DNA of 64,000 bases, from positions 21,396 to 85,395 of IMG/VR virus record IMGVR_UViG_3300020577_012390. One strand, 5' to 3'. A model generated the notes under the pieces. The model ran no database searches and was not told where the DNA came from. It worked only from the letters and a program-made list of their open reading frames with translations. Made by a program: the position numbers and the translations under genes. Below are positions 3,164 to 62,572 of this stretch, piece by piece. The stretch is from a virus (Duplodnaviria > Caudoviricetes). The number at the start of each line of letters is the position of its first letter. Position 1 is the first letter of the stretch.

Positions 3164-3976
3164 ATGGCGAATCCAGAGCGTGTGTTGCGGTGCCGGTTTG
3201 CGGTTGTCCAGGCGGCGTTGACCTTCGTGGGGCTGGGCCCCGACCCGGGGGAGGACAAGGAGGGGTACCAGGCGCGGATCTGGCCCAACGACACCCCCTT
3301 CGACCGGCGGGAGATGGCCCTCGGTCCGAAGAAGCAATACTCGTGCGCGATGACGTACGAGCAGGCGTGTCGGAAGGCGGGGTTCCAGTGGCCGATGGCG
3401 TGGATGAAACACGACATCAAGGACGCGCTGGTCCTGTCGATGCGGGAGCGTCTGAACGGTTTCTCACCGCCGCTATATCCGGTGACGATGGGGAACGAGT
3501 TCTTCCGCCAGAAGGGGGGTTCGACCAACCTCACCCGGAAGACGTTCAGCCCTGCGGAGCGCGAGGAGTTCATCGCGAACGCGCTCCTGACGAAGGTTTT
3601 TCTGCCTGGGAATTTTCTCGTCCAGGGTCTCAAGCAGGGAGGACCTCCGGGGTCCGTCTGGGGGAAGAACACCTACAACGGCGAGCACGTCCAGATTTTC
3701 GAGGAACTCGTGGAAATCGAGACGCTCGAAAACGGTGAGATCCATATCACCGCCTGGGTCATCGAGGGCGGCCAGCCGGGCGTGAAGCGGAACCTACGGC
3801 ACTTCGTCATGACCCCGAGGGGCGAACTCTGGGCGACGAAAGACCGGCAGGACCTCGAAGGCGATGGTCGTCCCCATGTCGGCCGGCGTGTCTCGTTCAT
3901 CGGGGACCTGGGGAGCGGGGCCGTCTCGGACTGGTGGACCGACCTCTCCGGCGACGTGAGCCCCACGGGGGTTTTA
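3164..3976 (+). CDS. CHAP/NlpC-like cysteine amidase (putative); ends at TTA 3974-3976, otherwise reads into QueD
   Basis: YSCA (Cys), PGNFLV, GEHVQIFEE (His), VIEGG resemble the CHAP pattern C..PGD..GH.GIVE..IEGN. Confidence 0.5.
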
Positions 3977-3979
3977 CAG

Positions 3980-4351
3980 ATGGCGAAATACCGCATCGGG
4001 AAGACTCTGGAGTTCGCGGCGGCGCACCATATCGAGGGTCTTCCCCCCGACCACCCCTGCTCCAACGTCCATGGTCACTCCTACAAGATGACCATCGAGC
4101 TGGAGAGCGAAGCCGTCGATGACGTCGGTTTCGTCCTGGATTTCAACGTCCTGAAAACGCTCAGGAACCACCTCGACCACCAGGACCTCAACAAGGTCCT
4201 CCCCTGCAACCCGACATCGGAGAACATCGCGAAATGGGCCGCTCAAAAACTAAACGACCTGTTGTTCAGGATGGGCGAGCTGGATGTAAAGATCCTGCGG
4301 GTCCGGGTGTCGGAGAGCGAAACGAGCTGGGCGGAGTGGTCGTCCGTCTAG
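3980..4351 (+). CDS. queD: 6-carboxy-5,6,7,8-tetrahydropterin synthase
   Basis: FAAAHHI..HPCSNVHGHSY, DF..LDHQDLN, NPTSENIA, VSESETSWAE. Confidence 0.92.
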   Translation: MAKYRIGKTLEFAAAHHIEGLPPDHPCSNVHGHSYKMTIELESEAVDDVGFVLDFNVLKTLRNHLDHQDLNKVLPCNPTSENIAKWAAQKLNDLLFRMGELDVKILRVRVSESETSWAEWSSV

Positions 4352-4566
4352 TCCCGCCGAAGGTGAACCGGGACTCGATCAAGGTCCTGGAGCATCTCCT
4401 GGAGATGGCCGAGAAGGGGGAGATCGTCTCCCTGGTCTGCGTCGCAGAATGTACGGGCGATAGGAGCGCCACGAGTTTTGTGATAACCAATAACCGTACC
4501 TCGATGCCGAACATGATCTACGGACTCGAACAGATCAAACATCGGCTTCTGACCCGCGGCGACTAG
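4336..4566 (+). CDS. hypothetical protein
   Basis: GTG start overlapping the queD end, TAG stop. Confidence 0.45.
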   Translation: MVVRLVPPKVNRDSIKVLEHLLEMAEKGEIVSLVCVAECTGDRSATSFVITNNRTSMPNMIYGLEQIKHRLLTRGD

Positions 4567-4577
4567 GAGAACCGATT

Positions 4578-5288
4578 ATGAGCATGTTGAAACTCGTTGA
4601 CTTCGAGAACCCCGTCTGGCGCACCATCCAGGGGGAGGGGAAGCATGTCGGGACCCCCTCAACCTTTGTGCGCTTTTGGGGGTGCGATTTCTCATGCTCA
4701 TGGTGCGACACGAAGCGGTCCTGGGAGCCGGGGTCGAACTACACCGAAATCTCGAAGGAAGACCTGCTCCAGCGGATTCTCCAGGAGGCGGGAGACACCC
4801 GGCATGTCGTCTTGACGGGCGGCAATCCCTTCCTCCAGGGCGATGGGGTCTCCGCGATCATCGTCGCGCTCCAACAGGCGCGGAAGTACGTCACGGTCGA
4901 GACGCAGGGGAGCGTGTTCCACGAGAATATGGTCGCGCTCCCCAACCTCCTCTCCCTGTCCCCGAAGCTGCACGACTGGCGGGAAGAAGAGCTTGAACGG
5001 ATTTTGAGTCATCGTAAATATCGGTTTGCCGCGTCTGGGATCGCGGAGACCCAGATCAAGGTCGTCGTGGCCAACGACGTCGGCGCGGGTATGGCGGTTT
5101 CCAAGCTGCGAAAAATCTTTGAGAACTATCGACTCGGGCTCCTCCTCACGGAGGGGTTGATCCTCCAGCCCGAGTTCTCGTCGGGGAGGGTGGGTGTCGA
5201 AGCGGCGGTCAAGGCTGCCATCGACAACCCGGACGTTCCTCTGCGGGTCATTCCGCAGGCCCACAAGAAATCTCTTTTCGTGAGGTGA
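4578..5288 (+). CDS. queE: 7-carboxy-7-deazaguanine synthase (radical SAM)
   Basis: TIQGEG, FVRFWGCDFSCSWCDT (CxxxCxxC), VVLTGGNP, VETQG, LSPK. Confidence 0.9.
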   Translation: MSMLKLVDFENPVWRTIQGEGKHVGTPSTFVRFWGCDFSCSWCDTKRSWEPGSNYTEISKEDLLQRILQEAGDTRHVVLTGGNPFLQGDGVSAIIVALQQARKYVTVETQGSVFHENMVALPNLLSLSPKLHDWREEELERILSHRKYRFAASGIAETQIKVVVANDVGAGMAVSKLRKIFENYRLGLLLTEGLILQPEFSSGRVGVEAAVKAAIDNPDVPLRVIPQAHKKSLFVR

Positions 5289-5294
5289 AAAGCA

Positions 5295-5480
5295 ATGATA
5301 ACGGTGACCATCAGGAACACGGAGACCGGCCGAGAAGAGACCTTGTCCGGTGAAGATGCTGTCGTGATCGTTGAAGGTCGCGGCGAAGCTGACGTCTACT
5401 CGACGAAGGGAGAGAGCGCGTGCCTCGAAGTTCTAAACGAAACGGTCGACGTGATCCGGCAGCGGTCCTCGCTTCACTAG
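5295..5480 (+). CDS. hypothetical protein
   Basis: Short ORF between queE and folE. Confidence 0.45.
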   Translation: MITVTIRNTETGREETLSGEDAVVIVEGRGEADVYSTKGESACLEVLNETVDVIRQRSSLH

Positions 5481-6040
5481 AGGAACATTTCCGGAAGTTT
5501 CTGGAGGAAGTCGGGGCCTTCAAAAACAATAGCCCCGAACTCGATATCGAGGGTACCCCGGCGAGGGTGGCCAAGATGTACGCGAGGGAACTCCTCGCTT
5601 CCTACCAGGAGGGGGCGCGGGAAGAGTTTCTGGGGACGCTAAAATCCTTCAAACTCACGAAGGAGCCGGAGATGGTGGTGGTCCGCAAGATTCCCTTCAA
5701 TTCCTTGTGCGCCCACCACCTCCTCCCCTTCCACGGGGAAGCCCATATCGGGTACGTCCCCACGACCCATCTTGCGGGCCTTTCTAAGTTTGTTCGGATC
5801 GTGAATTACCATGCCGCGAAACTCCAGACCCAGGAATCCATGACCTCCGACATTGCTCAGGAGATCGAAGACTTCCTGAAGCCCGCAGGAGTGGGTGTGC
5901 GTCTGTCGGCGGTCCACCTGTGCATGTCCTGTCGGGGTGTCCGGGTGGCGGGTTCGGACACCCTGACGACGGCTCTCCGGGGAGTCTTCAAGGAGCCGAA
6001 CGTGAAACAGGAATTCTACTCGCAACTTCCGATTTTGTTA
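5420..6040 (+). CDS. folE: GTP cyclohydrolase I (TTA at 6038-6040; canonical TGA ends 6052)
   Basis: TPARVAKMY, SLCAHHLLPF, GLSK, LQTQE, HLCMSCRGV. Confidence 0.93.
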
Positions 6041-6048
6041 TTCAGGGG

Positions 6049-6078
6049 TTGACTTTCCGTATCAAGAGGGGGTAGACT
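6049..6078 (+). promoter_or_regulatory. sigma70-like promoter
   Basis: TTGACT-N18-TAGACT upstream of 6124. Confidence 0.5.
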
Positions 6079-6123
6079 GGAATTCCAGGGTGAGAGAGAT
6101 CCCTGGAAGGAGCATCCCCGACG

Positions 6124-7658: not shown

Positions 7659-7661
7659 CCG

Positions 7662-11765: not shown

Positions 11766-12939
11766 ACCGATAGTGTTTATCGGAGCCTTGATTTCTACCG
11801 TAATTTTTTTGGCCGGTGGCGAAGTGGAGACCTTGACGAGGGCCCTTGTGGAAAATGGGGTCCGTCATATCCTCTACAGCTTCCACTACATCCACCAGAT
11901 GCGGAAAGAGAGGTTTATCGCCAACGTGATAAGCCAGAACCCCCAGATCCAGTTCTTCCTGGACTCTGGGGCTTTCACGTACTGGACCATGGGACAGACC
12001 CAGCCCGAGCGTCTGATCCCCTTTAGGGAATATATCCGGCGCTATTTCCAATACATCGAAGAGTACGGGGAACTCTTCTGCCGGGTGACCGAGCCCGACT
12101 TCGACGGGACCTTCGAGGAAATCACGCTCTCTATGGTTTATGACTGGCGCGAAGAGATGTTGACGCGCTGGCCCCACCTGAACGTCATCCCCGTGTGGCA
12201 CCTGTGGCGCGGGACGGCAGAGTGGACGATGTATTGCGAGGACCCGAGGATCAAGGCGCTGGCCCTCGGTCGGTGTATCGGTCCCCCTGGGCTCCACCGT
12301 CGTCTGGTGATGGAGGCGCATCGACACGGGAAACCCGTCCATGGGTTCGCGATGACGAAGATGCAGACCGAGTTGAAGTGGGTGCCCTTCGATTCGGTGG
12401 ACTCGACCTCGTGGGTAATGGGCCAGAAGTACGGGACGACGTACATATTCAAGGCCAACAAATTCGTTGTGATGGCGAAGGACGCGGGGGGTAAGGACAA
12501 GCGCCGGCTCTACCGGGACTACTACAAGGGGATCGGCTGCGACCCCGACCTGGTCATCGCTGACAACGTAGCGGAAGTCAGGAAGTCCAATATCATCGCC
12601 TGGAGGAACCTGTCCGCGCGCTTCGAGGAGATGAGGAAACGGCAGAACCTCACTCACCACGACTTCCCTGACCTGCTGGGGAAGGACCCTGCGGAACCCG
12701 TCCCCGTGCCGAAGGAGCGCGAGGAGGGTATCGTAAGTAAGCTGTTCAAAAACGAGAAAGATCATCACGCGACCAGCGTGAACGCCTGGAGGACCCATGA
12801 CAACGACCCGCCGCCAGTACCTCGACCCCGTGACCCTTCTCACCCAGCTCAGGGACCTAAACCCCGACCTCTACCGGGAAGCCTTGGAAGTGGAGAACCG
12901 AGCGAGGGAATTGTCGAGCGCCCTCGACAGCGTGAGTAG
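11746..12939 (+). CDS. dpdA: DpdA-like DNA deazaguanine transglycosylase (TGT fold); true end probably near 12781
   Basis: FFLDSGAFT, IPVWH, VHGFAMT, FDSVDSTSW motifs; co-occurs with Que genes. Confidence 0.8.
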   Translation: MVNTANEPIVFIGALISTVIFLAGGEVETLTRALVENGVRHILYSFHYIHQMRKERFIANVISQNPQIQFFLDSGAFTYWTMGQTQPERLIPFREYIRRYFQYIEEYGELFCRVTEPDFDGTFEEITLSMVYDWREEMLTRWPHLNVIPVWHLWRGTAEWTMYCEDPRIKALALGRCIGPPGLHRRLVMEAHRHGKPVHGFAMTKMQTELKWVPFDSVDSTSWVMGQKYGTTYIFKANKFVVMAKDAGGKDKRRLYRDYYKGIGCDPDLVIADNVAEVRKSNIIAWRNLSARFEEMRKRQNLTHHDFPDLLGKDPAEPVPVPKEREEGIVSKLFKNEKDHHATSVNAWRTHDNDPPPVPRPRDPSHPAQGPKPRPLPGSLGSGEPSEGIVERPRQRE

Positions 12940-17976: not shown

Positions 17977-19068
17977 ATGCCCAAAATCAAGAAAGAAGGG
18001 AAGGGGAACGGCCCCGACCTCTCGGACAAGATCAGCGAAGCCCTCCAAGGGAAGGACAAGAACCCCACCACCAAGAAGCTCTCCCTCAAGGACCTCAAAG
18101 CCCTCGGGGACAACAAGAAGACCAACCAGCTCCAGAAAGGGGGGCGGCGCGAAAAGGGCGCGTCAGCGCCCCAAGAAGGGGGGAGAAAAGAAAAGGAGAA
18201 TAACGCTAACAGTAACGCTATCCCTTTCACTGATGAGGAGGAGAAGGACTCCGTAGAGAGCAGGGAAGGGGAAGACGGAGGGGAGAACACACAACAGGAA
18301 GAAGACCCCCTGAACCCCACGGGCTACGTCCCACCCTCTCAAGTAGCTGAAATCGTTGAGGTTTCCCCGGAGGCTAATGGGAACTCAGAGCCCTCAGAAT
18401 CGGTATCCGTGGCTGTGGAGACCAGGGCCCCCCTCCCCATCCTGTCGGGTGCTGAACCCCCGGCCCATGTGAAGAAGGAGATGGCCAAGAGGAAGTCCCT
18501 CCCGGTCCTGGGATGCTCCTCCTGTCACATTGGTCAGTCCTGCCCCGAGTACAAGGAGGGGTATGTCTGCGCTTACAACGATGCTTTTGCGGCGTTTCCT
18601 GCGCGGGACGTGGACTCCGTGCTAACGGAAATGGCGGGTATAGTTTCGACAAACAAGGGCCGTCTGATGCGGGCGTACTACGCGGAGCAGCAGGTAAACG
18701 GCGGGGCTTTGGATATGAACGTCACCAGGCAGTCCCAGGTGGTGATGGACCAGATGAACCTCCTCCTGGCTCTCCATCAGGAGCAGAGGAAGGTCACGGT
18801 CACCGTCCACGGGCAGGGAGTGGCGAAACAACAAGGTCCAGGCATCCTTTCGCGTCTTTTCGCGAAGAATCCGGCCAATACACCCCCCTCCCCCACCCTG
18901 GAACTGAACGCTTCTCAGTCCGCGAACAACGGTACTGGACCTCTCCCACAGCAAGAGATCCCCGGTCTGTCCCCGGAGGCGATGGCTGAGATCAAAAAAC
19001 TTGAGGACAGCCCTCCCCAGGACCCAGTTTCCGCGATCCCCGGGGGCCAGGCGGGCGGGTCCCCGTTA
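17977..19068 (+). CDS. Cys-cluster protein, candidate terminase small subunit; ends at TTA
   Basis: Disordered N-terminus; CSSC-x5-CP-x7-C; helical core then beta strand; abuts large non-coding block. Confidence 0.35.
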
Positions 19069-23389: not shown

Positions 23390-23944
23390 TAATTCGAGAC
23401 CTGGAATCAGGGTGAACCTGCCGGTGGGGAGACGGTCCAGGTTCCCGCCGACCACCTCCCCGGTCTCGTGGGACATGCCGTTGGAGGAGAAGACGACGGC
23501 GGTGATGAGGGGGCCATCGGGACCTTGGAAGGCGTCCTGGGTGACGAGGCCGGGGTAACAACAGGAGGCGCCCACGCGGTCCCTGGTCCACCAGAGGACT
23601 CGGGCACCCTTCTGGAGCTTGTCCGTATGGGGGTGCGGAAACGAGGCCAGGACCTCGCGGGGAGGGACGGGGGGCGGCTTGGCCACCTCGGAGACGGTGA
23701 TCGGGGGCGTAGGGGCCGGCTGCGGGGCGTGGGAGGTGGCTTCCATGACGGTGGCGAGGACGCGGAGGGCTATGGCGTTCCAGACGGGGTCGGAACGGAG
23801 GATGGCCTCGGGGTTGTGGTCGTAGGGGGCGAAGAGGGCCCAGAGGGGGTGGCCGGCGTAGGACTCTGCGACCGCGGCGGAGACGATGGCCAGGGCGACC
23901 GTGTGAATGGTCGCGTCCGGGTGGAGGGCTGGCTTGGTGGTCAT
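23390..23944 (-). CDS. hypothetical protein; ends at TTA
   Basis: MTTKP start after GGAG. Confidence 0.55.
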
Positions 23945-23961
23945 AGCGTTTATCAGGCTCC

Positions 23962-24609
23962 TAAATTCTTGGTCTTGTCGGGGGCGACCCAGGGCCCCTG
24001 AATGATCTCGCCGCCGGGGGCGGGCGGGACCGCGGGGGGAGGAGTGCCGTTCTTGGCGACGGCGTCTGCGGCGATCTGGAAGAGCCCACGGATAGCGCCG
24101 AGGACTTCCGGGGGGACGACGTTCTGAAGTTCCCGCTGCATCTCGGGCCACTCGTCGAGGGCGATGATGTTGTCGTGGCTCATGTCGTTCTCGTAGACGA
24201 AGGCGACGCTCTCCAGGGCGATAGTGTTTATGCCGCCGTTCAAATTCCCATACGGAAGGGTGATCGCCTCCGTGATGGGGCTGAAACGGTGGACCCGGAG
24301 GGAGACCCTGGGGGTGCCCACCGCGTCGGGGGCGTAGAGGGCGGGGATGTAGAGCACGATCTCGGTGGGGACCGGGTAGAACGCGATCTGATCGAGGCTC
24401 TTCCTCCCGGCGGCCTCGGACTCCGGGGTGTTGGGGACGATGGCGCGGGTCAGGACACAGGCCAGCCCCTTGATGCCGATGGTCGTGTGGAAGGAGTGGC
24501 ACGGGACGAGTTCGAGGTTCCCGCGGGTCATGGGGCCGTTATCGTTTATCAGCTTCCGATAAACCATGAAGCGGAAGGCGGGGTACCCGATGAGCTGGCT
24601 CTGTTCCAT
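23962..24609 (-). CDS. hypothetical protein; ends at TTA
   Basis: MEQSQ start in a TTATG overlap. Confidence 0.55.
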
Positions 24610-25241
24610 AACCGCTTCCCCGGGTGGGTGGACGCGACTCCGGTGCTCGACTTGTAGAGCTGGGTGGACCGGATGAGGACCTCCAGCCAAGCCGACTTGT
24701 CCATCTTACCGAATTTCCCGGCCTCGATTTTCATCAAGGTTTCGTCGGCCCCTTCGGGGATCTGAATGTGGTACATGGCGTCGTTGTCCAGCCACTCTTC
24801 AGCCACCTCGACCTGGGCGTAGGGGATGGCCCAGGACTCGGTGGTGTGCTGGTCGTTGGCGGTGTCGAGGAGATCCAGGGGGAAGAGGAGGATCTGCTCG
24901 GGCTCGTCGAACCCCAAGCACTTCGTCCAGTAAGTGAACTTGCGAATAACCAGACTCGGGCGCTGGCCGGTCCACCCGGCGTAGGTGTAGACCCGGATCT
25001 TCTGGCAGCTCTCCAGGACCTTGCGCAGGGCCTTCTCCCTCGTCTCTGGGGTGCAGCACTGGTCCCCCATGGCGTTCATCCCCACGTACTGCTGGCTCGT
25101 GAGCTTCAGGTACCGGCGGTTCCCGAACCAGATGGCCTCCAGGCGGTTGACTCCGAGGTCGGTCGTGGTCCCCGCGCCATCGTCAGCGACGATCTGGAAA
25201 CGGAACGTCGAAAATCCGGCTTTCATTTCTGCGATCTTCAC
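24609..25241 (-). CDS. hypothetical protein; ends at TTA
   Basis: GC3-rich minus-strand frame. Confidence 0.55.
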
Positions 25242-25255
25242 GGCTTCTCTCCTTG

Positions 25256-25942
25256 TCAGCAGCGGCGGTCACAGAAGATCCGGAGGCGATCCTCGTTGCC
25301 GCGGAAACGGTTCACGTCCACGTCCCCGACGATGCCGGGGACCTTCCCCGTCCTCGAAAACTGCCAGAAGTCCCACCCCTCGGGTTGAGACATCGGGCGC
25401 TTCCACGCGGCGGGGAGCAGCGGGGAAGGTTCCTGCGTGTGATGGGCGACCCAGAGCGGGCACTCGTCGAAGGACCGGCTCTTGACGTAGGTGTCCCAGG
25501 TGCCGACGTTCGTGTAAATGATCGGCGGAATTCCGATAGCCCCCCGAATGATCGACACCCACTCGTAGATTTTGGCCACCATCTCGACGGGGGTGAGCAT
25601 CGTGCGGGAGTCTTCGTACTTCTCGACGTCGAGCACCGGAGGGAGGGTGCGACCATCGGCGGAGGAGGCGGGGTCCCCGATGGCTTCGAGGACCATCCGG
25701 GCCTGGGCGGCGACGTCCTGGTGAACGTCGAAGTATTGGTAAATGCCGGTGGTGAATTTCGGGTCCGCTGCCCTGGCGTTGATCCAGTTCTCCTCGAAGA
25801 GCTTGTCCCTCCTTAGCCCATCGGAGATCCGGATGAAGGCGAACTTGATTTCGCCGCCCGAAATTACCCGTTTCCAGTCGATGATCCGCTGCCAGACCGA
25901 AACGTCGATGCCCTTGACGAAGTCGTTGCTCATACCGGACAT
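25256..25942 (-). CDS. GH25 muramidase (endolysin), catalytic domain only
   Basis: KGIDVSVWQ, FAFIRISDG, GIYQYF, PPVLDVE, PIIYT, LWVAH, FWQFSRTGKVPGI.GDVD. Confidence 0.92.
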   Translation of the reverse strand: MSGMSNDFVKGIDVSVWQRIIDWKRVISGGEIKFAFIRISDGLRRDKLFEENWINARAADPKFTTGIYQYFDVHQDVAAQARMVLEAIGDPASSADGRTLPPVLDVEKYEDSRTMLTPVEMVAKIYEWVSIIRGAIGIPPIIYTNVGTWDTYVKSRSFDECPLWVAHHTQEPSPLLPAAWKRPMSQPEGWDFWQFSRTGKVPGIVGDVDVNRFRGNEDRLRIFCDRRC

Positions 25943-25978
25943 CGTACCACCCCATCCCTTCAGCTCCCCAGCGGGGGG

Positions 25979-26404
25979 TAAGCGGCCGCTCTTCTTCGCG
26001 CGGTCCCTCTCGGTCTTCCCCGGGTGCCTCGGAGGACCACCTCGACCCCCACCCTGAGCCAGGCTTGCGCGGCGTTCGTCCATCGCGGCGCGGGTCTCCA
26101 GCCATTCGGCCTGATCAGCGCGACCTGCGGCGACGACCCACTCCTTCGCCTCGGTCAACATCTCGATGGCCATGTCGAGGGTTTCGGAGTTCATCTCCGC
26201 GGGGATGTTGCCCTGGAACTTCACCTCGATGAAGCTGGAAATATCTCCGGTGACTTTCTTGTAACCCATCCGGAAGCTGTACTTCCGGCGAGAGGGGAGT
26301 TCGAGACGCTGGACCGTCACCACCAGCTCGCCCCTCTCTACCCGATGGACCTCCTCCCAGTTCAGCCGGGGTTTACCATCAGGGGTCATGTTATTTGTCG
26401 ACAT
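25979..26404 (-). CDS. hypothetical protein; ends at TTA, otherwise reads into GH25
   Basis: GC3-rich; GGGGAG RBS of the lysin follows the TTA. Confidence 0.55.
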
Positions 26405-29711: not shown

Positions 29712-30521
29712 ATGGCGACGGTCTTTTTCTCGGGCGGCATCGACTCCACCACGCTCGCTTTTGACGTGGCGAAAAACCCCTGGAGGTACGGCATCTCTCC
29801 GAAGACGGAGGATTTCCGCCTCCTGACCGCGTACATGGGGAAGGAGAAGCCGGCCCACCTCGGCAGGCTGGCGACGAAGATCCGCGAAGAGGCCGAGTGG
29901 ACGGAGTTCGCCGGGTTCTCCCACGAGTTCGTGGACGCCACGAGTCTATTCGATTTTCAAAAGTCGGATATCCCGCATGGGGGCGCGGGGACGATGACTC
30001 CCCTGTCGACGAAGTACCAGCCGGATCTCCAGTCGATCTCCTACGCGCCGGGCCTCCACACCCTGCTGGCCACCGTGGCGTACAACCGCGAATGGTTCGG
30101 TAGGAGTCTGTCCGCCTTCAGCGACCCCCAGGCGTTTTTCGGGTTCCAATACGACGGCCCGATCTGGAACGAGGTGGACAAGGGGACCGTGACGCCGAAC
30201 GACGTCTCCCCCGATTATATCGCGGCCCTGAATACCCTGGTGAGGGTGTCCGGACCCCGTCCGGGGGTGCGGTTCCGTGCGCCGTTCCTGGAGAACCGGA
30301 TGGATCGGGTTCATATCCTGGAATTGGCCATCACAATTGGCGTTCCGCTCACCTGGACGAGTTCCTGTGAGCAGGGGTGGATGGTGAACTGCGGGTACTG
30401 CGGACAGTGCCTCCGGAGGATGAAGGCGAGTTCGTACCTGGAAGACGCCATGAAGACGTTCTTGAAGAAGCTGGAAGACAAGAAAGCGGCGGAGAAAGCC
30501 GCGAAGAAGGGTAAGAAGTTA
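29712..30521 (+). CDS. divergent QueC-family PP-loop ATPase
   Basis: FFSGGIDSTT PP-loop; APFL; TSSC..CGYCGQC..R Zn site; lacks PxRN and YPDC. Confidence 0.75.
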
Positions 30522-31189
30522 TGAAGCCGAAATACACTGTGGTCCTCTCCGGGGGACAGGACTCGACCACCTGCCTGTATTGGGCGCTCGACAAGGGCGT
30601 CGATGTTCAGGCCGTGACTTTCCACTACGACCAGCGCCACGACACCGAGGTCGAGGCGGCGAAGCGGATCGCTGCTCACGCGGGGGTCCCCCACACCGTC
30701 CTGGAGGTCCCCGGCCTCGGGGTTGCGGGGAAGGGGTCGTCCCTCACGCGGGACTTGCCGCTGGACCTCGATGGGGGGTTCCAGGGGCTCCCGTCGTCCT
30801 TCCTCCCTGGCCGGAACCTGGTCTTCCTGTCCCTGGCGGCGGCGTTCGCCATCCCCCGGAACTCCTTCTACCTCGTCACCGGGGTCTGCCAGACGGACTA
30901 CTCGGGGTATCCGGACTGCCGGCGGTCGACCATCGACGCGATGGAGAAGGCCATCAACCTCGGTAACGATCTTCACGGCTTCAAAATCGATACCCCCTTG
31001 ATGCACCTGACGAAGGCGGAGACGGTCCGCCTCATGAGGGGGTTCGGGAACCAGGCGTGGGAGGCGCTAGGGATGTCGATCACCTGTTACGAGGGGAAGC
31101 ACCCGGGGTGCGGCGCGTGCGCGGCGTGCGTGCTGCGAAAAAAAGGTTTTTCGGAAGCTGGACTTGGTGACCCTGCGGAGGACAACTGA
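30521..31189 (+). CDS. queC: 7-cyano-7-deazaguanine synthase
   Basis: SGGQDSTT, PGRNLVF, DYSGYPDCR, TPLM, TCY..CGACAAC..R. Confidence 0.95.
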   Translation: MKPKYTVVLSGGQDSTTCLYWALDKGVDVQAVTFHYDQRHDTEVEAAKRIAAHAGVPHTVLEVPGLGVAGKGSSLTRDLPLDLDGGFQGLPSSFLPGRNLVFLSLAAAFAIPRNSFYLVTGVCQTDYSGYPDCRRSTIDAMEKAINLGNDLHGFKIDTPLMHLTKAETVRLMRGFGNQAWEALGMSITCYEGKHPGCGACAACVLRKKGFSEAGLGDPAEDN

Positions 31190-31191: not shown

Positions 31192-31773
31192 ATGAAAAGC
31201 TACGAATCTCTTACGTTCAAGGGTGAGAAGGAAGTCAACGGCCCGGAGGGGTCTTTCGTCATCGTCGAGGGCGAGGACGGCAAGAAGTACAAGATGGTGA
31301 GGGAGGCGCTTCAGTCTCTCGTCGAGGAGACTCAGCCCACGAAACCCCACGGGGCGCGCGGGCTCGACACCTTTCCGGCTCCCTCGAACATGCAGGTGAT
31401 CGATTTTCACCTCCCCGAATTCACCTGTCTCTGCCCCAAGACCGGGCAGCCTGACTTCGCGAGTTTCAAGCTCCGCTACATCCCCGACGAGAAGGCGGTC
31501 GAGTCGAAGTCGCTGAAGCTGTACCTCTGGTCGTTCCGCGACAAGGGCTGCTTCCACGAGAAGGTGACGGAGACGATCTACCAGGACCTCCTGACCGCGC
31601 TCGCCCCTCGATGGTTGCAGCTCATCGGGGAGTTCAACGTCCGGGGCGGCATCTACGAGAAGGTGGCGCGGGAGTGGCTGTCCACCGAGCTTCTTTTCGC
31701 GGGGTCGAATGGGCACTCGACCAATTCGCGGACACTCGAACGCCTCGTCGCGAGCTACCGTATCCAGTTTTTA
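31192..31773 (+). CDS. queF: preQ0 reductase with N-terminal extension; ends at TTA, otherwise reads into TerL
   Basis: EFTCLCPKTGQPDFA, VESKSLKLY (QueF motif), FHE, FNVRGGI. Confidence 0.92.
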
Positions 31774-46511: not shown

Positions 46512-46826
46512 ATGGCCGCAACGACTTCGACCGGCAAGTACCACCCGAAGGGGTACAACGATGGCAACCACTTCTTCGTCGAGGCGAACGTGGACACCGC
46601 CCTCGCGAACACCGACACCCTGGACGTCGTGCTCCCCGAGGGCGTGGACGACGACTGCCTCCCGGTGTCCCTGACCATCTGGGGGCCCGTCAGCGGGACC
46701 ACCCGGACCATCGACACCGACGCCGCCCTGACGTCCCACGACAGCAGCACCCGGAAGACCCGCCTGACCGCGACCGGCGCGGTCGCCCAGAACTCGACGG
46801 TCATCATCGAGTACCTCAGCCGCTTA
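46512..46826 (+). CDS. putative head decoration protein; ends at TTA
   Basis: Directly after MCP, Thr-rich. Confidence 0.5.
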
Positions 46827-49056: not shown

Positions 49057-49933
49057 ATGGGCGATCTATAAGCGGTTGACCGGCTGGCCTGTTGACTCCA
49101 AGGGAAGGCCGCAGGTCGGAGCGGATAATAAGCCGCTGAATTCCCTTATCATCGGACCCCCGGAAACGGGGCGCAAGCCGTCGTATGGGGTGCGGATTCC
49201 CCAACTGAAGGCGCCGTATGACCTCTCCCATCCCTTGACCAGCAAGACCCCGGACGCGATCCGGCTCTTCGAGAAGGGGGCGGAATCCCAGGGATTCCGC
49301 AACATCCCGGTCTTTTTTGAGGGAATTGACGGCCGGAGTTACGAAGACATCTGGCCCTGCGTCACCTTCCGCTGCTCGGGGTTCGACCAGAACGAGGCCA
49401 CCTTCGTCTACTTCGACCCGTTCGAGGACGGATCGGGGGACGACGCCGATATCTTGAACCAGAACGGGGAGGTCGTGCAGAGCGGGAAGAGCGAGGTCAC
49501 CGTCCGGAAGCATCCGGAAAGTTGGGACCTTGAATATACGATTACCTGCTACGCGAAGACCCCTCACGAGATCGGTCTCGTTATTGAGAGCCTGATTTAC
49601 CTCTTCCCTCAGAGGGGTGTCCTCGAAGTCGAGCAGATGGATGGGTCGGTCCTTGCGCTCGACATGATCCTCCAAAGGGTCCAGGACGTCGGCGCGAGGG
49701 CGGGTTCCTTGGCCCTTCAGATCGAGAAGGACCAGAGCGAGTATTATGGCCGGGCCTTCACGTATAAGGTCGAGGGTTATTTCGATAACACGGCCAACAA
49801 GTTCGGGGTGTCGGACACGTACAGCGTCCCGGCCATCCTCAAGAGAATCGTAGAGCTTTCCGAAACTCAGGAGAGCCTGGCGAAACCTACGGATTATAAC
49901 CTGCTCGAACTTGAGCAGATAACAGGAGAATGA
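49037..49933 (+). CDS. tail terminator-like protein
   Basis: Upstream of sheath; WPCVT..W.L.Y.I motifs. Confidence 0.5.
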   Translation: MIFLAVEWAIYKRLTGWPVDSKGRPQVGADNKPLNSLIIGPPETGRKPSYGVRIPQLKAPYDLSHPLTSKTPDAIRLFEKGAESQGFRNIPVFFEGIDGRSYEDIWPCVTFRCSGFDQNEATFVYFDPFEDGSGDDADILNQNGEVVQSGKSEVTVRKHPESWDLEYTITCYAKTPHEIGLVIESLIYLFPQRGVLEVEQMDGSVLALDMILQRVQDVGARAGSLALQIEKDQSEYYGRAFTYKVEGYFDNTANKFGVSDTYSVPAILKRIVELSETQESLAKPTDYNLLELEQITGE

Positions 49934-52329
49934 CCATCATGGCGCGTCGAAGCCCGGGTACCGATGTCACGGAAGTTCGCAAGGGTCCCATCACCGCTAT
50001 CGCCATCGCGACGGCGATTGGCGGGTTCCTCGGCCTCTTCGAGAAAGGGGAATTGAACAAGCCAATTCTCGTCACCAGCCCCTCCGACGCGAAGGAGGTC
50101 GTGGGGGACTCGCCGCCGGATACGGACAAGTTCACCCAGAACGCCCTGATCGACTTCTTCACCCACGGCGGGCAGAGCGCGTACCTGGTCCGGGTCCTCG
50201 GGTCGGGGTACGCGAGCGCGTCCAGGATGCTCCAGACCATCGCCACGGGGTCGTCCTCGGGGTCCCTGTCGTCCAACGTCGGGGCGTTCCCGGTGGCTCT
50301 GGTGAACGGCGAGACCTTCATCGGCAAGGTCGACGGGGGCGGGGCGGTGACGGCAACCGTCGTTGCCAACCGGGCGCGGGTCACGGGAGCGGGTGCGACC
50401 TACGCGGCGGTAACCGCCGCCCACGTCCTCAACCTCCTGATCCAGGGTGTCGCCCGCCAAGTGGTTTTTGACGGCACCGAAAACACTCAGGCGAAGTTCC
50501 TGACCGCCATCAACACCCAGCTCGTCGGGGCGACGGCGGTGGACTCCAGCGGCCAGATCCGGATCATCAGCGACCGCGAGGGTTCGTCCTCGTCGGGCTC
50601 GGTGGTCAACACAACCTCCGCGGACGTCCTGACCTCGCTGGGCCTCACGGCGGGCGCGTTCACCCTGGCGGGCGGCTCGAACGTGTCCGACGTCTCGGCG
50701 GTCACCGCGGCCGAACTCCTCGCGATCTTCAACACGTCCTTCGTGGGCTCCACCTCGACGGCGCCGGTCGCGACCCAGCTCACCTGGACGACCAACACCG
50801 TGGGCGCGCTCGGGTCGGTCCAGCTCTCGGGCGGTACCGGCGTGTCGAAAATCGCGGGTTTCGATAACGCTGTCCACGCGGGCGCGGGGACGACCCCTGT
50901 GAACGCCCTCCAGATCACCGCGTCGAGCCCCGGCGCGTGGGGGAACAAGTACCGGGTGAAGTCGCTGCGGTCGGACACCACCGTCGCGAAGGTGGCGGCC
51001 TCCCATGCGACGGGGGAGGTGGTGGATACTCTGGCCCTGAATACCACCTCGAAGGTCAGCGTCGGGGACACGCTCCGGATCACGGATGCCGGCGGGAACA
51101 TCGTCCGCGGGGTGGTCGAGTCCCTTGATGGCAACAACGTCACCTTCGTCGATTCGGTCACGGTGACGGCCTCCGGGTGGACCAGCTCTACCAACGTCGT
51201 GAACGAGACGTTTACCGTTTATGTGTACGACAAAAACGGCAAGCTGGAGCGGACATTCTCGAATCTTCGCACCTCGTCCCTGGCCGGCGCGAATTACGTC
51301 GAGAACGCGATCAACAACGCCTCCAGGACCCCGATCACCGCGACCATCCAGGTGAACGTGGCCCTCGACAAGCGACCGAGCGACGACGCCTCCCCGGCGT
51401 ACCTGTCCGGCGGGTCCGAGGGCGCCGCCCTGGTCGACGCGGACTACATCGGGGCGCTGGGGTCCCCGAAGACGGGTCTCTACGCCTTCGATTACGCGGG
51501 CGACGTGAACATGATTTCGGTGCCTGGAAATACCTCCACCGACGTCGTGAAGGCCCTGGAGACCTACGGCGAGTATCGCCAGGACGTCGTGATGTTCGGG
51601 GAGACCCCGGTGGGCTACGACCGGGACACCGCGAAGACCTGGATCGAGTCCACGGTCAACGCCGCCTCGTCGTTCTCCTCCTTCTGGTTCCCGTGGGTGA
51701 AGCGCCGGGACCCGGTCACCCTGGGCCTGAAGAAGTACCCCAACAGCGGGATCATCCAGGGTATCGTTGCTCGCACCCACAAAAACCGTGGGTTCGGGAA
51801 GGCGCCCGCCGGGATCGTCGATGGTCTGGTCCTCGGGGTGCTGGACCTGGAATTCAACATCGACGACAACGATTACGAGGTGCTGTACCCCGCGAAGATC
51901 AACGCCATCCGGAACTTCCCGGGCGAGGGGATCTGCGCGTTCGGCAACACCACGAGCGATGCGACGGGCGAATTTGGGAGCCTGAACAAGCGCATCATCT
52001 TCAACATCGTGAAGCGCGAGATCAAGAAGCGGACCCGCTGGGTGAACTTCGAGCCCAACACGAAGAAGACCCGCGACCGGGTGGTCCGCACCATCAAGGC
52101 GTACCTGCGCAGCCTCAAGGACAACGGCGGCTCCGGTCCTGGGGTCCTGGTGGGCGAGAACGACGACGACGCCTTCTTCATCCAGTGCGACGACAACAAC
52201 AACACCCCGCTGGTGGTCTCCCAGAAGAAACTGGTGTGCCGGATCGGTCTCGCGACCCAGACCGCCGCCGAGTTCCAGGAGTACACCCTCGAAGAAGACA
52301 CCCGCGCCATCGACGCTTCGCTGGCGTTA
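49930..52329 (+). CDS. contractile tail sheath; ends at TTA (canonical TAA ends 52338)
   Basis: SPGTDVTEV, FF.HGG..AYLVRV, SPGAWGN, WFPWV..DP, G..ARTH..RGF.KAPAG, INAIR.FPG.G, W..FEPN. Confidence 0.93.
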
Positions 52330-53743: not shown

Positions 53744-53970
53744 CCGAAGCGTGGAACTGGAGTGCTGATAAAACCCTCGACCTCCCCTGCGGGAGGCGAA
53801 GGCGCCTGGTAAAGTGGAAAGAAATTCACGCCAGAAAAATCCGTGAGAACCAGGACAAGGAGAAGAAAACCTCGGTCATCTGCTTCGACACGGACGATCT
53901 GATAGAGATTTGGGGCGCTCATATCGCGCAGGCACTCTTGACAGAGAAGGACGACGAAGACGATGGCTGA
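53686..53970 (+). CDS. -1 frameshift extension of the tail chaperone
   Basis: A AAT TTT / T TTT TTC heptamers; -1 frame encodes WLAEAWNWS..LDLP..RRRLV. Confidence 0.7.
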   Translation, partial: KFFLPLGSPFGIEGDIGWLAEAWNWSADKTLDLPCGRRRRLVKWKEIHARKIRENQDKEKKTSVICFDTDDLIEIWGAHIAQALLTEKDDEDDG

Positions 53971-56485
53971 CAGCGACAAGTTCTCGATGCTCTTCGAGGT
54001 GGTGGGGGAAGGGGTCGAGACCCTGTCGAGCATCAACTCGGCCATGGACAACATCGCGTCCAAGGCGGGGGCCATCGGGAACGTGTCGATGGATGGGATC
54101 ATCTCTGGCTTCAAGGACATCGCCCACGAGGCGGCGACCTTCCAGGATATCGAGTCCTCGCTCCAGTTTTCCTTCGGCAAGGACAAGTGGAAAGGCGTTT
54201 ATGAGGACGTGAAAAAAGACGCCGCCCAACTCACCTTCACCCTTCAGGAGGTGAGCGAGCTGGCTTCGTCCCTCGGGAAAATGCACATAAACCCCTTCGG
54301 GGGCGAGGACGCGGCGAGCCAGACCTTCCTGGCGAGGACCGGCGAGCGTATCCGGGCGCTCGAAGTCCTCCAGGACACGGCGGACGCGGCAGGGAAGTCC
54401 ACCTCCGACTTGACCATCGCTATCCGGAACGCGATGTCGGGTCAGTGGATTTCGCTGGCTACTCGTTTCGATATTCCGAAGGAGAAAATCAATAGCTGGA
54501 AGAAGGAGATCGACAAGCTCTCCACCTCCCAGGAAAAGTACAACATGCTCGTGAGTAAGCTCGCCCTGGACTACGGCGGCGCGGGCAAGCTCAAGGACAT
54601 GAACTGGAACAAGGTCGCGGCTCAGCTCCCCGACCTGGTCCAGCAGCTCAAGGGCGGGGCGGGCGCGGAGGGCCTGAAGATCCTCACAGCGTCTTTGAAG
54701 GAGTTCATAAACGCTCTGACGGGTATGGCCAAGGACGCGGACTTCCTGAAGGCGCTTTCGGATGCGTTCCTTCTCCTGGCGAAGGGGGCGGCCTTCCTGA
54801 TCGATATCGGGACCCGGCTGGTCCACGTCCTCCGGGGGATCGTGACAGCGTTCCCAGCCCTCCCCCAGGTCCTCCTGGTGGCGGCTGGCCTGTCCATCGT
54901 GACGGCGTCGGTCCTGGCGTTGACCGCGGCTTTCGTGGGTATGGGCGTGGCGTTGTCCACAATTGGACTGCCGGTAATCCTTACCTTCCTGGCGGCGAGC
55001 GTCATCGGCCTGGTGGTGGCGGTCACCTCGATTGCGGCGATCATCATGCTCGCCTCGACGGCGTTCGATATCTGGGGGGACAAGACCAACGGGGTTGCCA
55101 GCACTTTTGAGCGGTTCAAAATCGTTCTTGAAGCTGTGCAGGAGGCGTTGAACAATTGGGCCGGGGAGACCACGGAGATCAGCGAGGAGACGAAGAATCG
55201 CCTGGACGACATCGGCATGGCCGACACGTTCCTGGAGATCATCGGGGCGCTCCAGAGGGTGAAGACGTTCTTCGACGAGTTCGCCACGGGTTTCGCGAAC
55301 GAATGGAAGGTGATCGGGGAGCCGGTGAAGGTCTCGATGCTGGCCCTGGTGGATGCGGTCCGGATGTTGGGGACCGCTCTCGGTATGTCTTTTGGCGGCG
55401 CTAAAACCGATATCAACGGGGCGAAGACCGAGGGACAGGCGTTCGGGGCTGCCATGGCGGACTCCATCGGGTTCGTGGCGGGGGCGCTGACCTGGGTGAT
55501 GGGGATCGTGATCGACCTCATTGCAGACATCGGGGCGGCGGCGAGCACCTTCGCGGACTGGTATTTCTACGTGGCCTATTTCTGGAACACCCTTCAGATG
55601 GTCGGGGACCTGCTGGGGGCGTCCGTGGTCGTCAGCGCGTCCGTGGTGCTCTCGGTGTTCGAGAACATCCTCCAGGCCGTCGAGGGGATCGTGACCATGT
55701 TGAAGGCCGCTGCGGCGGTCATGACGGGCGACTTCGCGGGCGCTGCGAAGGAATGGGAGAAGGGAGGGGCGATCATCGACCGGATGAAGCAGTCCTGGAC
55801 CGAGACCGGCAAGACCTACGACAAGTGGGAGAGCAAATTCGCGGAGGACCGGAAGGACGTCGATAAGGCTTTTGACGTCTCCCAAAAGATCGCCAACTTC
55901 GGGGCGAAGGTCGACGGGAACATGGCTGCGGCGAAGGCGAGGAACGAGGAGTACGCCCGGTCGAAGGTCTCTTCCCAGGGGATCTCGTTTGCCGAGATGA
56001 CCCCCGAGGAAATTCAAGAGCTGGATAAGCGGTCAAAGTACGACACCCAACTGGCCCAACCGAACATGAGCGTGGACCGTCTGGGGGATGCCGGCTACGA
56101 GAGCTACCTCAAGCGTCAGATGGACATGGAGGCGTTGTCGCAGCAGAATTCAAAGTATGATTATAACTACGACCCGTACTTGCAGGACCGGAACCAGAGC
56201 ACGGACTACTACCAGAAGGAGGCGTATTCCAGCCTCATGAGCGGTCGCGGTCCCCAGATGAGCCAGCCTCTCCCGGTCTCCAAGGCGCCTCTCACCCCCG
56301 AGAAGTCCTCCGCGGAAGACCGCAAGGTGAGCGAAGAGGGACCCCAGATGAGTTCCGTTGTGCAGCCCCCGATTCAATTCCAGAGTAAGGTTGTTCTGGA
56401 GCTGGATAAACGGATCATCGCAGAGTCGGTCGAAGAGTATCTGGAAGAAGAGAAGCGTCGGACAGGCACCGGGGCCCCCTACTTA
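53963..56485 (+). CDS. tape measure protein; ends at TTA
   Basis: Long helical protein with hydrophobic core region after the chaperone. Confidence 0.85.
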
Positions 56486-56497: not shown

Positions 56498-57016
56498 ATG
56501 CCAAAACCCACCCCACTTCGCGGCAGGTTCACCATCGTCGAGCGCGGCACCACGAAGGTCTTCATGTTCAACCCCGCCGAGGTAGGCGACGAGAAGGGGG
56601 TGAATTGGGGCGAGGGTGACGTGCCCGGAGCGAGTGCGCCCGTGGTCCAATTCGGGTCAGGGAAGGCGCGGATCATCTCCTTTGAGCTGTTCCTGGACGG
56701 GGACCGGGGGCAGGTTGGGAGGGGCGGCAACTCCCTGGATATCAGCGAGGAGATAAACTTTTACCGCAGCCTCGAATACCCCTCGGCGTACGGGAAGGGT
56801 CCCGCGTCGGTGGCGCCCTGGATCGTCCTCTTCACGATGGGACCCCTGTACCAGCAGCTCCCTTGTCTCATCGTAAAAGCATCCCCGAAAATCATTTACT
56901 GGACCCCAAAGATGGAGCCGGTCCGGGCGACCATTTCGATCTCTCTTCGGGAGGAGCTGTCCAGGTCCCAAACCTCACTTGACGTCTTCCCGCAGCCCGG
57001 GTTCGGTACGATTTTA
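56498..57016 (+). CDS. CIS-tube-like baseplate/tube initiator; ends at TTA
   Basis: FMFNP.E..KG.NW, VQFGSG..R.ISFELFLD, LFT.G; own GAGG RBS. Confidence 0.75.
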
Positions 57017-57336
57017 TGGCCCAGAATAACGTTGTTCGAGCCCCGGTCACGGTCATCGTCCCCCTGAACGCGCTGGGGAGGACTTCGGCCCCCGCGTACC
57101 TGGACCTCCGAGTCCCCTTCTCGGTGGCCGGCGAGGACGACCGTTTCGCGGACGTGAAGCTGAGCGACTCCTGGGGGTCCTTGGCTTTCAAGTACCTGGG
57201 GGACGCGCGGGCGTGGTGGGTGATTGCCGACCTGAGCGAGGTGATCGACCCATTCGACGAATTCATCCCGGGAAAAACGCTTCGGATTCCCTCGGTGAAT
57301 CGGTTCTACTTTGACCTGCTCGATGGAGAGGTTTTA
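57016..57336 (+). CDS. tail X / LysM-like baseplate protein; ends at TTA
   Basis: DSWGSLAFKYLGDARAWWVIAD..G..LRIPS. Confidence 0.75.
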
Positions 57337-59176: not shown

Positions 59177-59991
59177 TGGCCTCTCGAATTGTATGTATCA
59201 ACCCCTGCAAGTCCACGAGCGATAACGTCCTCGACATCACCGTGCCCTTCGGCGGGAAGATGAAGTCGGGTGGTAGCCTCACCCTGAAGGGTGGATGCTC
59301 CGATTGTGAGGCGGTGGGGAACCTCCTCCTCCAGCTCCAACCCCTCTTCGGGGCGTTGGGTATCCCCCTCTGCCTCATCAAGTGCGGCGCGGCGGTCGTG
59401 GGGATGGCGACTGCTCTTGGAGACGTCGTGACGGGTCTCCCGGCGCCGGACGTGACGGCGATCCTGACGGCCATCGAGAAGGTGGTCACGAACTGCTCCT
59501 GCGTCCTCGAACTCGTGGACCCCACGGGGGTCTGCTCCTTCACCCGGATGGTGCGGGACTTCCTGAAACTGGCCATTTCAATTTGCGAGTGCGTCCTCGG
59601 TCTCCTGTCGCATCTTCTGGTCCTGAACCTGAAGGCGACGGCGTTGCAGCTCGGGGTGGACGACAGCGGGAAGCCGTTCGACGTCTCGATCATCGAGAGC
59701 GGGAAGTGCCTGGGGAACTACACGGCGGTCACCCAGAACAACGTGCTCCTGAAGTTCGAGATTCTGAGCGTGATATTCGCTCTGCTCGAAGGGGTATTTA
59801 CCTTCATCGAGGCGGTGGCCGGGCCCCTCCCCGTGAGTTTTGGGGAGATCAAGGACGCCTTCACCTCGTTCACGGATTCAACCTCGGTCCCGAACGTGCT
59901 CCCAGGGGAAGTTATCGGGTATTTGAACACGCTGAAAAACTATCTCCAGGGCGCGTATGACCTGCTCGACCTCCCGGGGTGTACCACATGA
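59176..59991 (+). CDS. Cys-rich hydrophobic baseplate-region protein
   Basis: About 11 Cys and long hydrophobic helices; between spike and gp25. Confidence 0.55.
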   Translation: MASRIVCINPCKSTSDNVLDITVPFGGKMKSGGSLTLKGGCSDCEAVGNLLLQLQPLFGALGIPLCLIKCGAAVVGMATALGDVVTGLPAPDVTAILTAIEKVVTNCSCVLELVDPTGVCSFTRMVRDFLKLAISICECVLGLLSHLLVLNLKATALQLGVDDSGKPFDVSIIESGKCLGNYTAVTQNNVLLKFEILSVIFALLEGVFTFIEAVAGPLPVSFGEIKDAFTSFTDSTSVPNVLPGEVIGYLNTLKNYLQGAYDLLDLPGCTT

Positions 59992-60386
59992 AAAAAGCGC
60001 CATCGATTCTCGGTACCGGGCTCGCTTTCCCTTTCCAGGAGGGCGGGAACGGTCCTGCTGTTGTCAGCGAAGAGGTTCTGGTGAAGGCGAGCATCTCCCA
60101 GATCCTCGGGACCAGGGTGGGGGAGAGGCCGTTTTGCGTGAGGAGCGGACGTCTTTTCGGGGTGCGAATTGCCGATGGTCTCTTCGAGTCCATGGTCACC
60201 GCCAAGGACATCATCCCCTACGAGGTCGCGGAGGCGCTGGCTATCTGGGAGCCCCGGATCTTCGTGAACTCGGTCACCGCGGTCGAGCTGTCCCCTGATG
60301 CGGTAGCCGCGCGAGTCGAGTACAGATTGCGGTCCACCAACAGGGCCGATAACTTCGTGAAACCGTATCGTATCCGGAGGGCATGA
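59988..60386 (+). CDS. baseplate wedge gp25/GpW-like
   Basis: G.GL.FPF; SI.QILGT..GER; AL..WEPRI. Confidence 0.88.
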   Translation: MKKAPSILGTGLAFPFQEGGNGPAVVSEEVLVKASISQILGTRVGERPFCVRSGRLFGVRIADGLFESMVTAKDIIPYEVAEALAIWEPRIFVNSVTAVELSPDAVAARVEYRLRSTNRADNFVKPYRIRRA

Positions 60387-62572
60387 TGGGAACCCCAGGT
60401 CTGAGCACTCTTGTTGAGGATTATACAGCTCTCGATTTCGAGACTCTCCGTGATGGGCTGATCGCGTTCGCGCAGCGCAGGTTCCCGAACGAAAAATGGA
60501 CGGATTTCAACGACGCCAATTTCGGTACCTTCCTGATCGAGCTTCTGGCGGAGATCGGGGAGCGGTTGGCGTACACCCAGAACGCCCGCTTCCTGGAGAC
60601 CATCCCCATCCTCGCTCGGAGGGAGGGGAACTTTATTCGGCTGGCCAAATCCCTCAGTTTCGCGATGAAGGAGGCGACCTCGGGCTCGGTCTCCCTCCGG
60701 ATCTACAACCTGACCGACCCCTCGACGCCGTACTCGTTCCCCATCTCCTCCCACCAGCAGTTCGGGTCGGACGACGGGACGATCTTCCAGCCGCTCACGG
60801 ACCTGGTCATCAGCTCGGCTTCTCTCGTTTTTGACCCGGTCAAATATGGCTATTACGTCGACATCGACGTCACGAGTGGCCAGGAAATCTACCAGGAAAA
60901 CCTGGCGACCTCTGATGGGAAGCCCAGCCAGGTGTACCCCCTCTCCTCGGGCCCTCTCCTCGAAGGAACCCTCCTGGTCCTGGTCAACGGCGCCGAGTAC
61001 ACCGAGGTCTCCAGCCTGGTCGAGTACGGGACCGGGGATAAGGTTTTCACCAGAGCCATTTCCGAAGACGGGGACACGGTGCTGACCTTCGGGGATGGAG
61101 TCTACGGAGTCATCCCGCCCACCGGATCAACGATTCTCGCCACCTACAAAATCGGTACCGGGACGGATGCCCAACTCCCCCCGGAGGCGGTCAACCAGAT
61201 CCTCAGCACCTCGGACGGGTCGGAGGTTTCGGGGTACCTCACGGGGGCGGCCTGCTTGAACCTGGCGAAGGTTTCGGGTGCGGGACCCCGGCAGACCCTC
61301 GACAACGCGAAGCAAAGCCTTCCTGCGGCGGTTGCGGCGAACAATCGAGGGGTGTCCCTGGACGACTATGCCGCCCTGGTCGTCAAGAACGTTCCCGGGG
61401 TCCTCCGAGCCTCTTCGATGGCGGGTAGGTACATCGGAGGGGTCAGCACCATCATTCTCCTGATCGTCCCCCAAGGTCTCGGGGAGGTGACGGCCAGCCT
61501 CTACAATCAGGTGGTCATCGCGCTCAGGGGGAAGAAATCGGCGGGGAGGCGGCCCATCCCCACCACGGCGGTCTACGTCTCTCTGAAGCTGGAGGTAGAC
61601 GTTTTTATCCGCTCGAACTACGCGAGCGGTTCGGTGGTTCAGGCCGTGAAGACGTCGATCCTGGACCTCTTCGACCCATCGAAGGTGGACTTCGCCCCGC
61701 AGTTTGCGCTCCAGACCCTCTACGATTTCGTCACCCCCGACGCCATCTCCGGGGTTTTGCGGATTTTCGTGCGCCGGTTTTCTATCGACCCATACATGGG
61801 CCGGTACGTCACCCTGGGAACCACAGGGAATGGCGTTGCTGTGGGTTTGAAAACCAATAAGTTGATCGCCCAGAGGAGGGAATGGAACGTGCGGATCGTC
61901 ACCCCACAGGCCCCCTTCTCCTGCCGGCAGTTCGAGGTCCGACAGCGACAGATGGGCACCATCTCGATGATCTCGGACACGACCGTCACCGATGAGCAGG
62001 GAAACTACGTCGAGAATTCCCTGGTCGGGTGGAGCCTGGTGGTCCGACCCTTGGAAGGGACGACCCCGAAAGCCGTGGTTTCTAACACCCAGAATTCCAT
62101 TACCGTGGCGGGCGGCCTTCTTCTCCTGGGTGGACCCGATGAGCCCTATGTGGTCGAGTTCCTGGAGGCGAGGGGGAAGGTGCTCACCTCGATCCTGTCC
62201 TCCGCGGCGGCCGGCTCGAACGTGGTCCAGGTCGATTCGGTGGCTGACTGGACGGTGGGCGACAACGCGATCCTGGTTGACGCCAGCGGTAACGAAATTG
62301 CCAGGGTGAAAATCACCATCGTCGGCGGTTCCAGCCTCACCCTGGACACGGTCGTCACGGCGGCGTCCGGCAGCAAGATCCACTACCTCTGGAAGAGCGC
62401 GGACGGCCAGATCGAGGTCGCGTTCCCCGATGGGGCTACCGCCTGGGTGGTCGGAGACGAGTTCTACGTGGACACCTACCCCGAGGCCGGTGACCTTCTT
62501 TTGAGGCCGGAGAATTACGTTACGTTCGACGAGGCGGACCTCGTGCTAAACTCCATCGGAGGGATCAAGTTA
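60383..62572 (+). CDS. baseplate J-like protein; ends at TTA
   Basis: DYT..DFE; WTDFN...G; SDG.P.Q.Y; FGDG..G.IP; NRGVS..DY. Confidence 0.9.

Follow-up and report, generated by a model that had tools for sequence, protein, structure and literature searches.

In-frame TTA codons at the gene ends of a contractile-tailed bacteriophage: a likely fourth stop codon

Gene ends in the phage genome

The DNA studied here is a stretch of 64,000 nucleotides (the window) from IMG/VR record IMGVR_UViG_3300020577_012390, a contig of 85,395 bp from an uncultured phage, with 61% GC and about 92% completeness, of which the window forms bases 21,396-85,395. The phage encodes a contractile tail, and its capsid protein is distantly related to that of Bacillus phage BCD7, the closest cultured phage (49.5% capsid identity), which gives no clue to the host. 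The feature at issue is the codon TTA, which stands in frame at the ends of 35 genes of the window between positions 3974 and 62572, 31 on the plus strand and 4 on the minus strand. A sequence-only reading had listed these codons as behaving like a fourth stop. The triplet at every listed position indeed reads TTA, and an independent codon-model gene call that accepted TTA as a stop gave the same 35 ends in the window and no others. Seven more terminal TTA codons lie in the genome outside it.

The gene caller, run over the whole 85,395-bp genome with TTA permitted as a stop, found 116 genes covering 91% of the sequence. TGA closes 55 of them, TTA 42, TAA 12 and TAG 6; the three standard stops are thus used alongside TTA, as had been noticed, and TTA closes about one gene in three (42 of the 115 so counted, 36%). 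The 11 TTATG stop-start overlaps reported for the window were all recovered by the gene call, and there are 13 genome-wide. When ten candidate extra stop codons were compared by model score and coding cover, TTA was the best (score 7060, cover 0.91), followed by AGA (6670, 0.887); table 11 without an extra stop gave 6380 and 0.873. AGA was rejected as a further stop, since it is present inside aligned regions and is therefore a sense codon; it is very rare genome-wide (10 AGA vs 265 AGG). Helicase, primase, modification, lysis and virion genes are all closed by TTA at similar rates. A T or G after the stop codon is expected for efficient termination, and the base 3′ of TTA is T or G in 35 of the 42 cases, a weak preference (p 0.04).

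Reading TTA as Leu extends the proteins by a median of 19.5 residues, makes 17 of the 42 genes overrun their neighbour by more than 30 nt and joins five gene pairs in frame, which bears out the earlier remark that TTA splits apparent fusions. The genes in these would-be fusions have their own start signals. QueF (31192..31773, plus strand, Pfam QueF) ends in TTA at 31771, and as Leu this codon would fuse it in frame to the terminase large subunit TerL (+616 residues). TerL (31789..33621, plus strand) has its own GGGGAG site and ATG and ends in TAA, and the two are separate genes in relatives L078, L079 and L292. The probable tape measure protein (53963..56485, plus strand; assigned by size and position) also ends in TTA and would gain 194 residues by fusion to the next gene; its homolog in L088 ends in TGA four codons away. 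The gene it would run into belongs to a pair, a CIS-tube-like gene and a small gene (56498..57336, plus strand), with TTATG overlaps at 57014 and 57334. On the minus strand, four of the five genes of a cassette (23390..26404) that includes a GH25 lysin (25256-25942) end in TTA, and the Leu reading fuses the first of the five to the lysin.

TTA positions compared with homologous genes

For this comparison each gene was translated past its TTA as far as the following standard stop, and the products were aligned with standard-code relatives. In the 17,847 codons covered by homology, none of the 1,417 Leu codons is TTA, where the ratios of sibling codons predict about 7-16 (P about 1e-3 or less). 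This count covers each gene only up to its TTA and depends on the gene calls. The behaviour of alignments that cross a TTA is independent of them: either two genes that relatives keep apart are fused in frame, or the relative has a stop there. In 17 of 24 testable TTA-ended genes the relative's stop lies within three codons of the TTA, with a spread like that of ordinary stops, and the three outliers stem from in-frame fusions. Homolog ends match the TTA and not the read-through end in genes that would otherwise gain 17-241 residues, namely the helicase (+161), the primase (+166), genes 90, 96, 108, 109, 111 and 114, and the baseplate J-like gene.

Three loci illustrate this agreement. The tail sheath gene (49930..52329, plus strand) ends in TTA; its homolog in L088 also ends in TTA, and those in L089, L090 and G008 end in TGA one to five codons away. 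The small gene that follows the capsid gene (46512..46826, plus strand) ends in TTA, and at the identical codon L089 has TTA while L088, L090, G008 and G011 have TGA. The gene of a probable baseplate J-like protein (60383..62572, plus strand; assigned without a hidden Markov model test) ends in TTATG, and its homologs end in TGA at 0 (G008), +1 (G010) and -1 (G011) codons from the TTA. Comparison with related phages had been proposed as a check, and it places the homologous ends at the same or a nearby codon, written TGA or TTA. Internal TTA codons elsewhere in the genome, which would have spoken for a sense function, were found neither by gene call nor by homology.

As TTA is absent inside genes and sits where relatives have ordinary stops, it is very probably a fourth stop codon. 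We consider it highly probable that UUA ends the proteins by some route. The earlier proposal had offered sense-to-stop reassignment or stalling in a host with scarce tRNA; what stands of it, with strong support, is UUA as a termination signal, given the homolog ends, the interchange of TTA, TGA and TAG at orthologous ends and the recurrence in relatives. The choice between its two routes is weighed below.

TTA stops in related phages

At least five related phages end genes in TTA: L088, L089, L090/L292, G006 and probably L087. The nearest are L088 and L089 (85% and 81% identity over the capsid segments compared), and L090/L292 and G006 are more distant. Which genes are closed by TTA differs from phage to phage, and at orthologous ends TTA, TGA, TAG and TAA interchange. 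The 16,298 codons counted in G006, whose genome is 80% complete, include no internal TTA, against an expectation of about 66. Three TTA-ending phages occur together in JGI 3300033066, and a JGI 3300076239 contig also belongs to the TTA-ending phages. Other relatives read TTA as Leu (3 internal codons in G008, 64 in G011), and several have 0-3 TTA in 12,000-24,000 codons. In a tree of three proteins (quick LG+G4) the TTA users are interleaved with the standard-code relatives G008, G011, L003 and L010; a single clade of TTA users is rejected (p-AU 4e-37), and three changes are needed. Such patchy use in phages that share no specific gene fits a property of the host, with repeated gain and loss possible. 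Three further relatives, L076, L028 and L031, represented by little sequence, have one or two in-frame TTA codons, some of them near gene ends.

Decoding of UUA by the host

A six-frame search of the phage genome gave no RF-1 match, and searches for tRNA, tmRNA and Rfam families were likewise negative; neither a tRNA-Leu(TAA) nor a release-factor gene, both of which the sequence-only reading had suggested looking for, nor any other recoding tRNA was found there. Because the genome is without a release factor or tRNA and TTA ends all gene classes alike, the host is the most likely reader of UUA. We put the probability that UUA is a real termination codon, read by the translation machinery of the host through release-factor decoding, at roughly 0.6. 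We narrowly favour a fuller version, in which an uncultured free-living bacterial lineage would have turned UUA from a Leu codon into a stop by way of a changed release factor, with many unrelated phages adapting to it. Under high GC, TTA would first have disappeared from coding sequence. UUA would then come to be read by a class I release factor of the host, most plausibly release factor 2 (RF2) with a codon-reading region altered as has been proposed for the organelles described below, while tRNA-Leu(UAA) would compete little or not at all. Single substitutions could let phages of such a host drift between UGA or UAA and UUA, and some leakiness of UUA to Leu is possible.

Several results weigh against decoding by the host. 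The phage genome is about 92% complete and many of its genes are without an assigned function. Among 400 Myxococcota and 200 Armatimonadota genomes screened for an excess of TTATG or for loss of the tRNA, no TTA-ending bacterium turned up, and every outlier in TTATG excess either used TTA as Leu or did not use it; the screens were pattern-based and the genomes partly incomplete, so that the result reads 'not found' and not 'absent'. Moreover, bacteria whose RF2 carries either SPF>GPF together with HTSF>HTAF (Armatimonadia), or QTAF (several Myxococcota), or QTGF keep TTA as an internal Leu codon, and most of them retain tRNA-Leu(UAA).

One short RF2 motif served as a search probe only, and conclusions were drawn from the sequences returned; the serine of HTSF is presumably Ser204 in Thermus thermophilus numbering. 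A GTDB-wide pattern search returned Armatimonadia with GPF and HTAF. They were rejected as hosts for their internal TTA codons (G001, G002, G004). The Armatimonadia prfB genes L040, L043, L048 and L049 combine SPF>GPF with HTSF>HTAF in genomes that favour TAG stops and read TTA as Leu. QTAF occurs in the RF2 of Myxococcaceae and several Myxococcota; Myxococcus landrumensis keeps tRNA-Leu(UAA), and a myxobacterium with QTGF uses internal TTA.

A myxobacterial host was not confirmed in the Myxococcota sample, in which the tRNA-Leu(UAA) pattern was matched in 341 of 401 genomes, a tally that includes the unpublished G211, a genome that enters no other result. Members of an [HQ]TAF cluster that seemed to be without this tRNA mostly have a divergent copy and use TTA internally. 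G084 (RF2 QTAF, divergent tRNA-Leu(UAA)) has no TTA in about 92,000 codons, and G079 (also QTAF) no credible in-frame TTA in about 42,000; over these roughly 134,000 codons the two avoid TTA and do not end genes with it. The high-GC Myxococcota genome G287 has no TTA in 57,635 codons. tRNA-Leu(UAA) was not detected in G079 or G287. Since such bacteria still use TTA as Leu or avoid it, the RF2 serine change alone is insufficient to remove its use as Leu. Finally, sequence-atlas searches with the lysin and SpoVS found no host, and a search of GTDB with the capsid protein found no prophage relatives.

Alternative explanations

A phage factor of unrecognised fold, such as a release-factor modifier or a nuclease of tRNA-Leu(UAA), might, during infection, make UUA a stop in a standard-code host. 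The absence of a TTA-ending bacterium among the 600 genomes screened speaks for it, as do about 40 genes without homologs in standard-code relatives and the Ser>Ala change that myxobacterial RF2s already carry, which is possibly permissive. However, neither a release factor or tRNA nor any other recognisable translation gene is present in the phage, which shares no unknown gene specifically with the TTA-using G006 (80% complete). Genes for replication and putative early genes are among those ended by TTA, and their translation would precede the accumulation of such a factor; all 55 viral RF2-like genes found keep SP[FY], with no variant of the SPF serine. We regard a phage factor as unlikely. 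Contigs L119 (2007-2345, minus strand) and L160 carry a 112-residue phage mini-RF2 that consists of the codon-reading part only, without GGQ; that of L119 has HTCF instead of HTSF.

Alternatively, UUA might be unassigned or starved in the host, with no or scarce tRNA as in bldA control, and release might follow from stalling and rescue. Some high-GC Myxococcota do avoid TTA entirely (G084, G079, G287), but G084 has a (divergent) tRNA-Leu(UAA), and 36% of the genes, including sheath and tape measure, would rely on rescue. Proteins tagged by tmRNA are degraded and Arf-type rescue acts preferentially on truncated mRNA, which counts against stalling, and the 13 TTATG overlaps mimic normal termination-reinitiation. 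This route we hold to be quite improbable.

That TTA is ordinary Leu, placed at gene ends by chance or with tolerated read-through, is very hard to sustain. Only 1-5 residues are added in 13 of the 42 read-throughs, and high-GC relatives are also nearly without internal TTA; the median extension, the overlaps and the five fusions described above, together with the stops of relatives at the TTA position, argue the other way.

The sequence-only reading had rated as at least as likely a sequencing artefact, in which a hypermodified G of TGA, here taken to be a 7-deazaguanine, is miscalled as T. The phage does carry FolE, QueD, QueE, two QueC, QueF and two DpdA-like genes, but the same set is present in G008, a relative with ordinary gene ends. 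Identical TTA codons occur in a JGI assembly and in SRR32380193 (both maybe from one sample), a 96.4%-identical strain from SRR18715511 has the same TTAs with an ordinary substitution spectrum, and two assemblies agree fully on the L090 phage. Out-of-frame TGA is still present (651+242 = 893), and 111 T-GAR and 66 TCA sites (hyphens mark codon boundaries), which miscalling G as T would destroy, are preserved, with no internal stop. T-TAY aligns to Tyr (57%), with Asp absent from the top residues, ATT-A to Ile and TTT-A to Phe. There is no sign of the synonymous G>T pattern claimed in GA context; among fourfold sites, those preceding A carry T least often, contrary to what such a pattern would give. 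None of the 42 TTA stops has A as its next base (vs 22 of 55 for TGA, p 6e-7), as real DNA under selection would behave, and this fits the genome-wide absence of TTAA. A miscall does not fit, because a chemistry error cannot see the reading frame while the out-of-frame sites stay intact; with the other assemblies and the relatives, this refutes the artefact in substance.

Modification genes and other features

QueD, QueE (by motif) and FolE (5576-6040, ending in TTA) form a 7-deazaguanine pathway segment at 3980..6040 on the plus strand, which is also present in standard-code relatives. Two DpdA/TGT-like genes lie on the same strand at 11848..12939 (phrog_887, E 2.7e-31) and 17977..19068 (phrog_887, E 3.9e-18, ending in TTA), each with homologs in G008 and G011, where the pair of paralogs is conserved. 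A divergent QueC, which ends in TTATG at 30519, precedes a canonical QueC (29712..31189, plus strand), and this pair is conserved in G008 and G009. With two DpdA/TGT-like and two QueC paralogs, the phage may install more than one guanine derivative. TTAA does not occur in the 85 kb (about 47 expected), and several relatives also are without it; many 6-bp palindromes (CTCGAG, GGATCC, TTCGAA, AGATCT, ACCGGT) are wholly absent despite the 7-deazaguanine pathway, and GpC is depleted (0.73).

Three HNH/AP2-like open reading frames lie at 10308-10661, 10661-11038 and 11100-11765; the first two are TTATG-coupled, and the third, at 53% GC, still has no TTA among 21 Leu codons. A non-coding stretch of 1.2 kb (19068-20246) with repeated GATA/TTATC motifs and no Rfam match is followed by genes with the common leader TAACGGAGATT, and is possibly an origin or early promoter region. 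The two contig ends (L001:1-95; window 63900-64000) overlap within one tail gene by about 95 nt of imperfectly repeated sequence, which suggests a circular genome broken at a variable site.

Comparison with known codes and implications

NCBI table 23 is the Thraustochytrium mitochondrial code. UUA is a stop in these labyrinthulean mitochondria, and UUA and UCA are stops in peDinoflagellate plastids, described as the first case outside mitochondria; organelle UUA termination has been tied to substitution of RF2 Ser204 by Ala, Gly or Cys (PMC12574857). The phage resembles both codes at sequence level: UUA is absent from gene interiors and stands only at 3′ ends, where homologs terminate, its reading as stop resolves apparent fusions, UAA, UAG and UGA are still used and no cognate tRNA is encoded locally. 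Unlike the organelles, this is a bacteriophage of a free-living bacterial host with 61% GC, and UCA and UUG stay sense. Phages that recode stop codons (TAG=Gln, TGA=Trp; PMC10607447, PMC7886860) likewise have a non-standard code that is patchy among close relatives, but here the change goes the other way, from a sense codon to a stop; the genome encodes neither a suppressor tRNA nor a release factor, and late genes are not the only ones affected. In Streptomyces, UUA is an internal Leu codon gated by the supply of bldA tRNA (PMC10732093). It is the rarest codon of high-GC genomes and has a special role there too, whereas in this phage it is missing from gene interiors and occupies orthologous stop positions. 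The FolE/QueD/QueE/QueC/QueF/DpdA set is that of phages with 7-deazaguanine DNA (PMC6884629, PMC7544227, PMC10516641); being common to standard-code relatives, it does not explain the TTA ends.

A literature search found no sense-to-stop reassignment in bacteria or phages, the published cases being mitochondria and plastids, in agreement with the earlier statement that no bacterial or phage UUA stop was known. Codetta-type screens cannot detect sense-to-stop changes (PMC9825746). The present analysis adds a phage family whose TTA users are interleaved with relatives of standard code. It also refutes the modified-base artefact directly and gives negative outcomes for the RF2 variants and for a myxobacterial host. 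Standard gene callers mis-annotate such phages, with false QueF-TerL and tape-measure fusions and extended database proteins such as P0122, and TTA-ending phages offer a marker in the search for the host. If a free-living bacterial lineage has indeed reassigned UUA, the change would be the first from sense to stop known beyond organelles. If UUA is a stop here, the translation apparatus of a bacterium, either native or altered by the phage, recognises a fourth stop codon. It would offer a natural test of RF2 discrimination at the second codon position and of codon-capture evolution.

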